Shown one piece after another: positions 9,343-32,897 of a DNA stretch of 38,691 bases. How positions within the stretch are numbered: position 1 is the first letter of the stretch; every line of letters begins with the position of its first letter. The notes beneath the pieces are model-generated. The model made no database searches, had not been told where the DNA came from, and saw only the letters and a program-made list of their open reading frames with translations. Made by a program: the position numbers and the translations under genes. The DNA comes from Candidatus Aminicenantaceae bacterium (GTDB taxonomy: Bacteria > Acidobacteriota > Aminicenantia > Aminicenantales > Aminicenantaceae), in contig JBATYS010000293.1 in the NCBI GenBank assembly GCA_049674205.1, positions 1 to 38,691 of the forward strand, read 5' to 3'.

Positions 9343-9885
9343 ATGGCAGAAGCGATACCATTTACACTCGTAAAACTTATTTGCGGGATCATTGCAGTCG
9401 GAGGTGACATCTTTGCCAGGTCCACGGCATATCTCACAGATAGTTTCGGGCCCATCGACCATACAAGCACGCTCATGGATTTTAAATTCACTGATTATTA
9501 TGAGAAGCAGATGGGGGAGGGGCTAAGAAGGAAGTTTGTCAGCTTTGCTGAAATTGTTCCCCCTGAAAAGTTAAGTGAAGCAAAGATCCAAACGAATGTG
9601 CTGGAGGAGGAAATAAAAAAGGAGTTTGGATCGGTAAAGCGTATCGTGAATCTCGATCCAGGATACATGACAGCTTCTGCTCTAATCATGGCAACTGCCA
9701 AAGATTTTTCCCATAGGATCCCTCTGAAAAAGGGGATCTATGCACATCTGGAGCTTCTTTTTGGAAAGAATGAAGTGAAGACATTGAACTGGACCTACCC
9801 AGATTACCGGACAGAAGAATATCAACGATTTTTCCTCGAAGTTCGCAAAATCTACTTGAAGCAACTTAGAAGTTTGAATGCGTAG
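9343..9885 (+). CDS. Conserved hypothetical protein (resembles the DUF4416 family)
   Basis: 180 aa. FTDYYEKQMG and RIVNLDPGY motifs as I recall them for DUF4416. No catalytic motif recognised. Confidence 0.5.
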   Translation: MAEAIPFTLVKLICGIIAVGGDIFARSTAYLTDSFGPIDHTSTLMDFKFTDYYEKQMGEGLRRKFVSFAEIVPPEKLSEAKIQTNVLEEEIKKEFGSVKRIVNLDPGYMTASALIMATAKDFSHRIPLKKGIYAHLELLFGKNEVKTLNWTYPDYRTEEYQRFFLEVRKIYLKQLRSLNA

Positions 9886-9895
9886 TTTGATGTAA

Positions 9896-10122
9896 TTTGG
9901 ATTATTCACGAGCCGAGATCGCTGCAAAGGCGAGGCAGTGGCCCACGAAGCTGTAGTGAACTACCGCGAGTGGGCTACAACGAAGGCTTTGTAGTGAGAT
10001 CGGCGGGTTAGGTTGGGTCGGCGCCCGAAGGGTAAAAGATGCTAACAATAAAATATTGAGTTTTCCTTTCTGATAAGTTTTTCTAACATAAATATGTTAG
10101 CATCTTTTATGAATGATCCAAA
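9896..10122 (+). mobile_element. MITE-like element, copy B (subfamily 2, 227 bp)
   Basis: TIRs tttggattattca / tgaatgatccaaa. Core ggcagtggcccacgaag...gggctacaacgaag...gcccgaagggtaaaagat. Fills the gap between two convergent stop codons. Confidence 0.75.
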
Positions 10123-11280
10123 TTAAAAGTCGTTAGGGTCAAGTCCTGAGATCTCTCTCAGCTTCTCTACGATTTCCGGAAGTTCAGTAAGCACTGTATC
10201 AATATCCTCTTCTGTGTTAAACCGCCCGAGGGAAATCCGAACAGTGGACCTTGCGACTTCTGGCCTCAGGCCAATAGCGCTGAGGACATGAGAGACATCC
10301 TCAGATTCTTCACTACAGGCTGAACCCGTAGAGACATAGATTTCTTTTGTCCCTAAAGACAGGAGAATCGCTTCTGCTTCAAGTCCGAAAAAAGAAAAGT
10401 TGAGTGTTCCCTTGATCCTGTTTTTCTCATGACCGTTGAATTTGACGTTAGGAATCTTTTCCTCAATTCCCTTTTTCAACCTCTCAGCCAGCTTCGCGAT
10501 CGTTGTTTTATCTTTATCCCCTCGGTCGAGGAGAATACGTACGGCCTCTCCGAATCCCACTATGCCAGCAGTGTTTTCTGTTCCTGCTCGCATCAGCCTT
10601 TCTTGATGTCCTCCATAGATGAGTGGTTTAAGAGGAGTTCCCTTCCGGACATAAAGGGCTCCGATTCCTTTGGGGCCATATACTTTATGCGCAGAGATTG
10701 AGAGAAGATCGACACCCAACTTATTGACTAGAACATCGATTTTGCCAAAGCTTTGGACTGCATCGGTATGGACAAGAACTCCTCGGTCCTTAGCTAAACG
10801 GACAACCTCTTCTATAGGCTGGATGGTTCCGATTTCATTGTTTGCATGCATTATAGAGATTACTGCCGTTTGAGGCGTAATCGCGTCCCTTAGGAAATCG
10901 ATGTCAATGGTGCCTTCTGAGTCAACTGGTACAAAGCTGACTTTTTTCCCTTTGCTCTCCAGGTAATTACCTGTTTCTATAATGGCTGGGTGTTCGATGG
11001 CTGAAGTGATGAATTCGTTCTTATCAGGGAGCGCATCCATGACACCACGCACAGCCATGTTATCTGCCTCGGTTCCGGATCCTGTAAAAACGATCTCCGA
11101 CCGCTTCACGCCCAGTGCATTGGCGATGAACTCTCTGGCTTCAGTTATAAATTCTTTCACTTCTCTGCCGATAGGGTAGATAGAAGAGGGATTCCCGAAA
11201 TGCGTCTTTAGAAACTGATACATTTTTTCACTGACGTCTGGGTCTAGCGGGGTTGTCGCGTTATTGTCCAGATATACCAT
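10123..11280 (-). CDS. Cysteine desulfurase (NifS/IscS family)
   Basis: PLP lysine in SAHKVYGPKG and active-site loop STGSACSEE. 385 aa. Confidence 0.85.
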   Translation of the reverse strand: MVYLDNNATTPLDPDVSEKMYQFLKTHFGNPSSIYPIGREVKEFITEAREFIANALGVKRSEIVFTGSGTEADNMAVRGVMDALPDKNEFITSAIEHPAIIETGNYLESKGKKVSFVPVDSEGTIDIDFLRDAITPQTAVISIMHANNEIGTIQPIEEVVRLAKDRGVLVHTDAVQSFGKIDVLVNKLGVDLLSISAHKVYGPKGIGALYVRKGTPLKPLIYGGHQERLMRAGTENTAGIVGFGEAVRILLDRGDKDKTTIAKLAERLKKGIEEKIPNVKFNGHEKNRIKGTLNFSFFGLEAEAILLSLGTKEIYVSTGSACSEESEDVSHVLSAIGLRPEVARSTVRISLGRFNTEEDIDTVLTELPEIVEKLREISGLDPNDF

Positions 11281-16145: not shown

Positions 16146-16373
16146 CCTGAATTATTCATAAAAGCTACTGCCTAATATATACTTTAAAATCATTCAATAT
16201 CTTATTGGCAGTATCTTTTACCCTTCGGGCGAACTGATCTCACAGCATCGGCTTCGTTGTAGCCCGGGTTAGGTTGGGTCGGCTTGCAGTAGTTTACTAC
16301 AGCTTCATGGGCCACTGCCTCAACCTTGATGTAAGGGTGGGGTGGGTTGGACTTGACTAGTGAATAATCCAGG
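16146..16373 (-). mobile_element. MITE-like element, copy C (subfamily 1, 228 bp, inverted relative to A)
   Basis: TIRs cctgaattattca / tgaataatccagg. The reverse complement aligns with copy A through the whole core (gtccaacccaccccaccc...ggcagtggcccatgaag...gggctacaacgaag...gcccgaagggtaaaagat). Confidence 0.75.
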
Positions 16374-26322: not shown

Positions 26323-26573
26323 CCTGAATTATTCACGAGCTGATATCGCTGCAAAGGCGAGGCAGTGGCCCATGAAGATGTAGTATACTACTTCGAATGG
26401 GCTACAATGAAAGCTATGTAGTGAGATCAGTTCGCCCGCAGGGTAAAAAATGTCGATTATAGTAATGAGGGCAGCGGCAACGGAATTGTCAGATTGGTTC
26501 ACAAGAAAAAAGCGAAGTGTTGAGATCGTTTTCGTTGAAATAAGTATCAACATTTTTTTATGAATAATTCAGG
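26323..26573 (+). mobile_element. MITE-like element, copy D (subfamily 2, 251 bp)
   Basis: Perfect 13-bp TIRs cctgaattattca / tgaataattcagg. TTA on both flanks (26320-26322, 26574-26576). Core ggcagtggcccatgaag...gggctacaatgaaag...gcccgcagggtaaaaaat. Confidence 0.8.
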
Positions 26574-27540
26574 TTAAAAGGTCACCCCAGCATTCCTTAG
26601 GATTCGATAGGATCGATACTATCTGAGTTATCGAAGGATGTTTTACGCACTCAATAACACTCTTTAATCTCAATCGCGCCATATCTTTATCGTCTAGACC
26701 TAAAACGGGAACTTGGTCATACAGGATTGTGGTTTCCGCGATCTTCTGGGAGATGTTATCGAATAGAATTTTACTGGATTTATTAGCGTCGCTGATCGTG
26801 TTTTGGATAAATTCTTTCCGTCCTTCCTCGATATGAGAGAAAAGGATGTGTACTGCTTCAGTGTTTTTGAGAATTTCAAAGTCAGTGGCATACGAAGACA
26901 GGTCAAGGGCAATTTTCTTTTGCCATAGCTTATCCGGTGCTGGCACCTTTACATCAGGGATAAATTGGGGGAAATCGTACACAAGAGTTCCGAATCGGAC
27001 ATTGTCTATTAGAGAGCCCTTGAACCACTCGATCTGATTGTTCTTTATACAAAAATGCACTGTTTCAGTGGAAAAAAGCCGCAAACCTTTTGCCAATCCG
27101 CTGAGTAGATAGACGGTCTTCCCGCTTCCTGCACCTCCGATGATGAGATAGAGGAATTGATCTTTCTGGTCAAAAAGAGCGCAAGCATGGAGATTGTAGA
27201 TCTTGTGGTATTTCTCGAGAAGATACAGGGCATAACGGTATAAAAAACCCTGATTCCCCCATAAGGAGAACCTTAGGTCGGAAGCCGTTCGGGAAAGTCT
27301 CGCGAATGGACCAGAGAAAACATATTCGTTCCCATGCCTTTCATAGTGTGGGGCCTCGTGTGAATCAAGAATCCGAACATAACCGTCAAGATCTTCTGTG
27401 TAGGGAATTCGATCTAACCGATGGAAATCAGTGAGAAGTGATTTCACCTCAATATGAAACGGGAAGGGAGGAAGAAGCTCTTTTTTGTTCGTCTCGATCC
27501 CAACGGTCGCTTTTAGTATTTTGAGCGCAGTTTTGAACAT
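26569..27540 (-). CDS. HPr-kinase-like P-loop protein (HprK C-terminal-domain / PEPCK-like fold), function unknown
   Basis: LHACALFDQKDQFLYLIIGGAGSGKT resembles the LHAxAV...G.SG.GKS/T signature of HprK-related kinases. The stop codon TGA (26569-26571) lies inside the TIR of copy D. Confidence 0.45.
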   Translation of the reverse strand: MFKTALKILKATVGIETNKKELLPPFPFHIEVKSLLTDFHRLDRIPYTEDLDGYVRILDSHEAPHYERHGNEYVFSGPFARLSRTASDLRFSLWGNQGFLYRYALYLLEKYHKIYNLHACALFDQKDQFLYLIIGGAGSGKTVYLLSGLAKGLRLFSTETVHFCIKNNQIEWFKGSLIDNVRFGTLVYDFPQFIPDVKVPAPDKLWQKKIALDLSSYATDFEILKNTEAVHILFSHIEEGRKEFIQNTISDANKSSKILFDNISQKIAETTILYDQVPVLGLDDKDMARLRLKSVIECVKHPSITQIVSILSNPKECWGDLLT

Positions 27541-32845: not shown

Positions 32846-32897
32846 ATTGAATGATTTTAGAGTATATATTTGGCAGCAGCTTTTATGAATAATTCAG
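32846..32897 (+). repeat. Truncated MITE fragment, copy E (right-hand 52 bp only)
   Basis: attgaatgattttagagtatatatttggcagcagcttttatgaataattcag matches the right end of copy C (reverse complement of 16146-16198) at 49 of 53 aligned positions. No core and no left TIR. Confidence 0.65.

Follow-up and report, generated by a model that had tools for sequence, protein, structure and literature searches.

A strand-specific folded module in a family of non-coding miniature inverted-repeat elements from a Candidatus Aminicenantaceae genome

Miniature inverted-repeat transposable elements (MITEs) derive from an insertion sequence (IS) by internal deletion, both ends being retained, and dispersed repeats with an RNA fold are already known from bacteria. 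In bcr1, a MITE-like repeat of ~155 bp found in the Bacillus cereus group, compensatory changes have been reported to keep a fold at the RNA level (PMC3184786). Correia/NEMIS (Neisseria), ERIC, RUP, BOX, and SPRITE are repeats found in large numbers between genes; they fold upon transcription and may include promoters, terminators, or RNase sites (PMC3184786). Here we present a previously undescribed repeat family identified in a 38,691-nucleotide stretch of DNA from a Candidatus Aminicenantaceae bacterium (contig JBATYS010000293.1, positions 1 to 38,691), hereafter referred to as the window. Repeat finding and direct reading revealed four full copies (A to D) and one solo right end of the repeat within these 38.7 kb, and neither Aminicenantes MITEs nor these sequence strings were encountered in the searchable literature. 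An earlier note, made from the window alone, had proposed that the core of the repeat is a structured RNA carried by the element, citing compensatory substitutions and strand-specific G:U pairs.

The folded module and its conservation

The elements share one layout, i.e. a conserved 5' module of ~105 nt (in the window copies, a conserved 5' part of ~124 nt), followed by a 3-bp CCC/GGG mini hairpin of the form CCC-NNN-GGG and an AT-rich variable hairpin, all between terminal inverted repeats (TIR-L and TIR-R). The module, located in the left half of the element, forms a ~105-base hairpin on one strand only and consists of four stacked helices (H1-H4) with conserved purine-rich internal loops between them. 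The features of the copies in the window are listed below (position, strand, and description; MFE, minimum free energy).

1468-1751, +: copy A, whole element, subfamily 1
1490-1505, +: copy A, C-rich box 1
1558-1574, +: copy A, C-rich box 2
1525-1531 with 1575-1581, +: copy A, H3 (gcggccc/gggctgc)
1537-1543 with 1548-1554, +: copy A, H4
1611-1613 with 1617-1619, +: copy A, mini hairpin
9897-10121, +: copy B, whole element from TIR to TIR, subfamily 2 with an inserted G-rich box
9897-9909: copy B, TIR-L (ttggattattcac)
10110-10121: copy B, TIR-R (tgaatgatccaa)
9909-10003, +: copy B, long irregular hairpin, MFE -54.9 kcal/mol
9913-9916 with 10000-10003: copy B, H1
9919-9929 (plus 9931) with 9987-9997 (plus 9985): copy B, H2
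9938-9946 with 9970-9978: copy B, H3
9947.9969 and 9948.9968: copy B, tandem G.A/A.G with bulged A9949, between H3 and H4
9950-9956 with 9961-9967: copy B, H4, with the loop tgaa at 9957-9960
10004-10021, +: copy B, G-rich box (cgggttaggttgggtcgg), inserted in the 3' strand of H1
10024-10032, +: copy B, mini hairpin ccc-gaa-ggg; its GAAGGG is Shine-Dalgarno-like, with an ATG (10039-10041) 6-7 nt on
10033-10109, +: copy B, variable AT-rich 3' domain (A-tract, closing stem, T-tract)
10038-10047 with 10096-10105: copy B, closing stem of the 3' domain (gatgctaaca/tgttagcatc)
16146-16373, -: copy C, whole element, subfamily 1
16350-16335, -: copy C, box 1
16282-16266, -: copy C, box 2
16315-16309 with 16265-16259, -: copy C, H3
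16303-16297 with 16292-16286, -: copy C, H4
16229-16227 with 16223-16221, -: copy C, mini hairpin
26323-26573, +: copy D, whole element, subfamily 2, no boxes
26336-26344 with 26426-26434: copy D, H1
26346-26356 with 26414-26424: copy D, H2
26365-26373 with 26397-26405: copy D, H3
26377-26383 with 26388-26394: copy D, H4
26435-26437 with 26441-26443: copy D, mini hairpin
32846-32897, +: solo right end, i.e. the 3' part of a variable domain and TIR-R, without the folded module

All the pairs reported in the earlier note were recovered. In copy B, these are gtggccc (9938-9944) with gggctac (9972-9978), the hairpin gctgtag-tgaa-ctaccgc (9950-9967), cgctgcaaag (9920-9929) with ctttgtagtg (9987-9996), which includes two G:U pairs, and ccga (9913-9916) with tcgg (10000-10003), the place of which is taken by ctgat/atcag in copy D; the variants in copies A, C, and D also read as it described. 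In copies A and C, the outer helices are partly replaced by a C-rich box, so that the four copies share only the two inner helices, the outer ones belonging to subfamily 2, again in agreement with the note. The G-rich box of copy B was found by alignment to be the reverse complement of C-rich box 2 of copies A and C.

Further copies were collected by pattern searches. The pattern applied to reference genomes, with 16 specified bases, was loose, and ~100 of the 115 stretches obtained were chance matches; genuine copies were present in five metagenome-assembled genomes (MAGs), three labelled Candidatus Aminicenantes and two labelled 'uncultured Eubacteriales'. A tighter pattern applied to metagenome contigs gave at least 120 stretches, nearly all being true copies. 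Aminicenantes-labelled MAGs and sediment metagenomes together provided more than 100 copies beyond those of the window, and viral contigs contained no match to the repeat. From the MAG labels, we infer that the family is abundant in Aminicenantes-like genomes. Forty-four copies without boxes, originating from the window, MAGs, and metagenomes, were placed in a gap-free alignment (A2), on which a covariance model (R1) was built, and 118 distinct copies were then aligned to the model (A3). R1 yielded 121 matches in 0.66 Mb of related loci (numbered with the prefix L), nearly all of them sense-strand copies. The proposed structure comprises 40 pairs, namely those of H1-H4 and the mini hairpin.

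The compensatory changes claimed from four copies were borne out by both larger alignments. In A2, 91.1% of the cells are paired and both sides have changed in 23 of the 40 pairs (83 cells); the corresponding values for A3 are 88.4% and 30 of the 40 pairs (224 cells). None of 500 shuffles scored as high in either alignment, and slid controls gave 9-13 pairs (11-17 cells) for A2 and 11-17 pairs (33-49 cells) for A3. RNAalifold, supplied with A2 alone, returned the same helices and added one pair, 49-76 (CG 21, UA 19, and UG 3), which extends the closing helix to 9 bp. This helix is wholly swapped in L135:11132-11254 (GCAAAGGA/TCCTTTGC for GTGGCCCA/TGGGCTAC) and altered at three pairs in L128:5917-6039 (GTGACCTA/TGGGTCAC), and the mini-hairpin pairs 115-123, 116-122, and 117-121 covary as well (CG to UA or UG). 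While the stems vary, the loop GAGGCA with AACGAA, the tandem G.A/A.G with its bulged A, and the U-pyrimidine mismatch are near-invariant. The retained G:U pair (43-82) and the U-pyrimidine mismatch (55-68), both already pointed out in the window copies, are present in 41 and 43 of the 44 A2 copies, respectively.

The fold is restricted to one strand. Across the pairs, G:U cells number 220 and A:C cells 9, and switches between G-C and A-U pass via G:U, e.g. at 17-108 (UG 8, CA 1), 42-83 (UG 5, CA 0), and 15-111 (GU 9, AC 0); at 24-101, 27-98, and 43-82, G:U is fixed in 73-93% of the copies. The long hairpin was also obtained by single-sequence folding of the sense strands of copies B and D (-54.9 and -47.9 kcal/mol, respectively), with RNA folding z-scores of -7.35 and -7.44 for the sense strands and -4.12 and -1.77 for the antisense strands. 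R1 scored copy D at 131 bits on the + strand (25 bits on the - strand) and copy B at 111 bits on the + strand (over 9898-10037), compared with 25-27 bits for antisense strands; the subfamily 1 copies scored lower (19-38 bits for copy A and 42 bits on the - strand for copy C). The G:U (G:T) asymmetry excludes a symmetric double-stranded cruciform, and to this extent the earlier argument for RNA holds; it does not extend to single-stranded DNA (ssDNA), which is compatible with the data, as DNA parameters favour the same strand (z-scores of -4.5 and -4.2 for the sense strand and -1.9 and -1.6 for the opposite strand). The variable 3' domain, by comparison, is structured on both strands and exhibits no strand bias when composition is controlled (z, -3.2 vs. 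-2.9).

The earlier note had been unable to place the fold in a known RNA family, and the Rfam searches agree: no match was found in the whole window at gathering thresholds (Rfam 15), and at E <=10 copy B matched only a Tetrahymena snoRNA model, at a chance-level 16.3 bits against a gathering score of 100. Several known motifs were considered and rejected by inspection, namely a K-turn (there is no 3-nt bulge beside the tandem G.A), SRP RNA domain IV, and bridge-RNA-like loops complementary to the termini or target. Pairing of the TIRs as an RNA helix was also rejected, C.A and U-A variants being found at the covarying TIR position, without a strand signal.

Termini, insertion sites, and gene context

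The 84 non-redundant TIR-to-TIR elements range from 173 to 296 bp in length. The TIRs are 13 nt long, CCTGRATTATTCA with TGAATAATYCAGG in nearly all copies; every window copy starts with (C)CTGRATTATTCA and ends with the inverted complement, and some elements have an alternative outer terminus, AAGATRGATTATTCA, paired with GAATAATCTATCTT. The flank consensus is NTAR/CC...GG/YTAR, i.e. xTAR on both sides, and copy D is flanked as TTA/CC...GG/TTA. Identical flanking 4-mers were identified in 6 of the 36 testable copies (TTAG and CTAA twice each, TTAA and TAAA once each), compared with a mean of 1.0 and a maximum of 5 in 5000 shuffles; several other copies have near-matching 4-mers, and in most copies a duplication is no longer visible. 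The target duplications are of 3-4 bases and YTAR-type, are intact only in a subset, and in these few cases are consistent with mobilization by the IS5 group. As YTAR includes a stop codon whichever strand is read, the elements are often located exactly at stop codons.

After the module, the longest ATG-started open reading frame (ORF) encodes 39 amino acids, and the median is 15. Gene context differs for each copy, and the flanks are unrelated except at orthologous sites and in tandem copies; copy A has an orthologue in L199, a conspecific contig (98.7% identity to the window over 8.4 kb). The classification of the family as non-coding MITEs is well supported. TIR pairs located 0.6-2.7 kb apart were considered as candidate autonomous ISs but proved to be host genes between two MITEs or chance matches, and copies without a nearby right end, considered as longer elements, merely have decayed ends. 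No long multi-copy segment was found among the matches listed.

Directly after the module is the Shine-Dalgarno-like GAAGGG, half of it within the mini hairpin, with an ATG 6-7 nt later. The string GAAGGGTAAAA(A/G)ATG is found at the same place in 62 of the 81 copies, and 8 more have a near-cognate start there. Beyond the ATG, the copies carry several unrelated cassettes; these were examined by eye as possible coding sequences and rejected, since related cassettes differ by frame-breaking indels and contain early stops. The 3' pairing ends are copy-specific, i.e. TTTCGATATA/TATATCGAAA in copy A, GATGCTAACA/TGTTAGCATC in copy B, TACTGCC/GGCAGTA in copy C, and ATGTCGAT/ATCAACAT in copy D. The 3' domain has a loop of 40-130 nt and an AT-rich stem with A and T tracts around it. 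A scan of 9700-10300 for intrinsic terminators (GC-rich stem of at least 5 bp, loop of 3-8 nt, and T-run) found none, the loop in copy B being too long for this simple definition.

Three short boxes occur in the module, two of them C-rich (box 1, CCAACCCACCCCACCC; box 2, CCGNCCCAACCTAACCCG) and the third an exact reverse complement of box 2 (CGGGTTAGGTTGGGTCGG). At many loci, they are variably present, at six or more positions within the module; they are confined to these elements, and boxes 1 and 2 co-occur (Fisher p ~1e-6). Box 2 and its complement, when both are present, could pair and compete with the main hairpin. At one insertion site with orthologous flanks that are 80-90% identical, different 3' cassettes of a short and a long type were found (L026:4749-4945, L190:1063-1254, and L102:1770-2018), which suggests cassette exchange, gene conversion between copies, or repeated insertion at one site.

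Head-to-tail tandem arrays were observed in L154:4362-4745, L120, L136, L206, L221, L082, and other loci, with a recurring spacer of 5-9 nt (...TTCAGG-AGAAAGA-TGGATT...); tandem copy number is unequal at the orthologous sites in L154 and L120. A deletion derivative of ~85 nt, at approximately L025:2404-2490, retains both TIRs, the 5' strand of H1, a G-rich box, and the mini hairpin but has no H2-H4. The solo right end in the window is located between two genes of the amidohydrolase family. It shows 94% complementarity to the right end of copy C and represents either a truncated copy or a remnant of recombination.

The elements occupy short gaps between genes, in many cases directly abutting a stop codon or lying 10-27 nt ahead of a start codon. 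Ten genes flanking the window copies were scanned, and all but one are of ordinary housekeeping types (among them a TPR protein, GpsA, DUF4416, class-V aminotransferases, and ComA); none of them is a transposase, and no transposase was linked to the termini in the listed loci. The exception, the ORF at 26569-27540 (-), the TGA stop codon of which is contained in TIR-R of copy D, has no Pfam match, and the window contains no tRNA genes. Because elements lie flush with stop or start codons, and copy D even supplies a stop codon, gene calls will be disturbed and assemblies broken in these genomes. Derivation from an IS200/IS605 element (PATE) or an omega RNA was rejected, as TIRs and duplications are present, with no adjacent ORF and no Rfam match.

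According to the earlier note, the fold is convergent with the gene at the right TIR. This is the case for the four window copies but is not a general orientation rule: relative to neighbouring genes, orientation is unbiased, with 35 same and 29 opposite on the left and 39 and 30 on the right (pooled, 74 and 59). Of 74 elements with at least 300 nt of flank, 21 have an ORF of at least 100 codons that reads antisense to the module and ends flush with the right terminus, and 5 have one ending flush with the left terminus; the window sites of this flush-stop polarity are 26569-26573, 10123-10125, and 1752-1754. Start codons are nearer to the right end (~16 nt) than to the left end (~100 nt).

The note had also argued that copies antisense to both flanking genes would need a promoter of their own, a suggestion that was not sustained. 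Sense-strand sites of the sigma-70-like type, the only type scanned for, occur at chance (18 of 84 elements, 18.3 expected) and are absent from copy B; the fold is preceded by only 13 nt of TIR, and the left flanks contain no conserved sequence beyond orthologous sites and upstream tandem copies, i.e. neither a left extension of the element nor a promoter. An outward-facing sigma-70-like site, TTTGCA-16-AATAAT (9928-9901, -), would fire into the left flank of copy B. It is the complement of the 5' strand of H2 and the left TIR, lies in conserved sequence, occurs with a 9-of-12 match in 25 of the 84 elements, and is not found in other subfamilies.

Site of selection and possible origins of the module

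Rare states in 58 clean sense copies were used as a proxy for mutations that arose after insertion. Among one-sided transitions from Watson-Crick pairs, singletons gave 6 G:U and 8 A:C, and states present in at most two copies gave 16 of each; the singleton rate per cell is 0.0099 in paired columns and 0.0106 in unpaired columns. Rare mutations thus break pairs as often as they keep them, so that resident copies seem to be under no constraint; this speaks against every copy functioning as an RNA gene. These data are an indication that selection on the fold acts in the lineages that spawn copies and not in each resident copy. Taken together, the strong covariation between lineages and the apparently neutral decay of individual copies would mean that the fold matters for spreading and not for the adjacent host gene. 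Of the original proposal of a structured RNA carried by the element, the conserved, strand-specific fold with compensatory changes in a TIR-bounded repeat stands, while the identification as RNA does not follow from these results.

We tentatively propose, with a probability of roughly 40%, that the module is a leader-type RNA domain of a parent transposon that has been retained in MITE deletion derivatives. The fold would be an RNA domain on the strand chosen in the earlier note and would once have been the 5' untranslated region (UTR) ahead of the transposase start in an autonomous parent; as the element has no promoter of its own, RNA containing the fold may be made only if transcription enters from the left terminus. 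Selection would keep the fold in propagating source elements, and dispersed copies, having inherited it, would decay. In IS200 and IS10, transposase translation is known to be limited by structured leaders. The Shine-Dalgarno-like GAAGGG and the ATG placed at a set distance after the module, despite differing cassettes downstream, are in keeping with the proposal. A leader domain appears to be the simplest account of strand specificity, lineage-level selection, the lack of a promoter, and the lack of orientation bias taken together. Several points weigh against this proposal. Among the matches listed, there was no autonomous IS with these termini, so that both the parent and its leader are hypothetical, and there were no empty sites, queries with joined flanks giving only tandem-array artefacts. 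Target duplications are intact in only ~1/6 of the testable copies, and the counts in the rare-mutation test are small. The ATG region pairs with the sequence just inside TIR-R, and its conservation may therefore reflect this stem instead of a start codon. The numerous variants of the module have been recombined with cassettes of several types, for which either repeated births from diverged parents or frequent gene conversion would be needed. Finally, given the preference of DNA parameters for the same strand, RNA and ssDNA are inseparable by sequence.

The placement of the elements in short intergenic gaps, flush with stops or just ahead of starts, would suit a cis-acting RNA serving the host in the manner of REP, ERIC, or bcr1, i.e. 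an mRNA stabilizer, processing site, or insulator, a role that needs no promoter and for which precedents have been reviewed (PMC3184786). The polar layout (module, then A-tract, stem, and T-tract), with a strand-specific module and a 3' domain equally structured on both strands, fits such a role: read-through from the left would produce a stable 3' or intercistronic segment followed by a terminator-like AT-rich hairpin, and transcription in the opposite direction would meet the hairpin first, so that only the sense module would be made. We nevertheless regard this as unlikely, because rare stem mutations exhibit no pair-keeping bias and accumulate in paired columns at the rate of unpaired columns, orientation to neighbouring genes is unbiased, the flush ORFs mostly face the right terminus, where the mRNA would carry the antisense strand (21 vs. 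5), and the simple terminator scan was empty in copy B. Selection that seemingly acts on source lineages and not on resident copies would suit a fold needed in cis for the mobilization of the element itself. As ssDNA or RNA, it would recruit or position the transposase, and proliferation would be limited to copies in which it is intact. Strand specificity is obtained with DNA as well as RNA parameters, the internal loops of the fold are conserved as in a protein-binding site, and the module interrupts a ~27-nt inverted repeat (right, CCTGAATTATTCATAAAAAATGTCGAT; left, TTCA-(module)-TAAAAAATGTCGAT), the two left-end halves of which would be joined by folding. The TIRs and YTAR duplications, however, suggest a DDE (IS5-type) cut-and-paste enzyme acting on double-stranded DNA, a class for which no fold requirement is known; there is no strong orientation bias relative to genes, unlike the expectation for a lagging-strand ssDNA mechanism, and inspection revealed no loop complementary to the termini or target. 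A role in mobilization is accordingly doubtful, somewhat more so than the host-level role, and its strict form, in which the fold would be the obligatory cis partner of a TIR-type transposase, either as RNA or as ssDNA, is more doubtful again. If true, this strict form would make a cut-and-paste-looking MITE dependent on a structured nucleic acid to spread, and it would explain lineage-only selection, the splitting of the 27-nt inverted repeat by the module, and the conserved loops.

The need for separate promoters expressed in the earlier note for copies A, C, and D implied that each or many of the copies are discrete trans-acting small RNA genes. Conserved unpaired loops, the single-stranded C-rich box of subfamily 1, which could act as a seed, and the A-tract, hairpin, and T-tract on the 3' side would be in keeping with such genes, but the 13 nt of TIR ahead of the fold, the chance-level number of promoter-like sites (18 vs. 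18.3 expected), left flanks without shared conserved sequence, and the seemingly neutral decay of the copies make this quite improbable. The least probable account, to which we assign very little weight, is one without function, in which complementarity is kept by neutral processes such as intra-strand gene conversion in a palindromic repeat, or in which the structure is a double-stranded cruciform or protein-binding palindrome. The whole element is hairpin-like, the 3' domain has no strand bias, and copies do recombine, as seen from the different cassettes at the same site in L026/L190 and L102; conversion or a cruciform, however, predicts Watson-Crick pairs on both strands, contrary to the G:U pairs fixed at defined positions and the count of 220 G:U against 9 A:C cells, and in spite of the variation in the stems, the purine-rich loops and a pyrimidine-pyrimidine mismatch have been conserved. 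The family offers unusually clear comparative support for a fold in a poorly studied, uncultured lineage and raises the question of why a TIR-type mobile element would need a fold on one strand.

Comparison with known systems

Structured non-coding RNAs are also located in the non-coding end of the mobile elements that encode the omega RNAs of the IS605 family and the bridge RNA of IS110. These families differ from the present one in that they lack TIRs and target duplications and lie beside TnpB, IscB, or the IS110 recombinase, none of which is near the present copies. In its TIRs and 3-4 bp duplications of the YTAR/TWA type (TTAG, CTAA, TTAA, and TTA), the family resembles IS5-group ISs and MITEs, the bacterial relatives of PIF/Harbinger-Tourist. 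It differs from them in that no IS5-type transposase or partner was found in the listed loci and that the duplications are intact in 6 of 36 copies; the termini (CCTGRATTATTCA) also do not appear to match IS5 ends. The 5' UTR hairpin of IS200 and the RNA-IN/RNA-OUT system of IS10 share with the module a strand-specific RNA structure at the transposase-proximal end, beside a ribosome-binding site and a start codon, that is selected in the element and not in the host. Those elements are autonomous, carry a transposase gene, and have shorter structures, whereas the present family consists of non-autonomous derivatives only, and the link between them is inferred.

Correia, ERIC, RUP, BOX, and SPRITE are looser relatives, none of which has been reported in the searchable literature with the present sequence. 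BOX is modular, like the present family, and SPRITE is terminator-like (PMC3184786). These repeats fold mainly by the pairing of two arms, and Correia duplicates TA; unlike them, the present family contains an internal strand-specific module with covariation in 30 of 40 pairs. The closest described case is bcr1, which, like the present family, is short, dispersed, non-coding, and flanked by short direct repeats, and in both, independent stem-loops are formed in place of one simple TIR hairpin. By its description, bcr1 is set apart by its host phylum and sequence, its 5-bp direct repeats, and the fact that it has been shown to be transcribed, whereas the present family, known from its sequence alone, has one long four-helix hairpin and a variable domain. 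What appears unusual among repeats of this kind is the strength of the covariation together with its restriction to one strand, along with the indication that propagation, and not the resident copies, is under selection.

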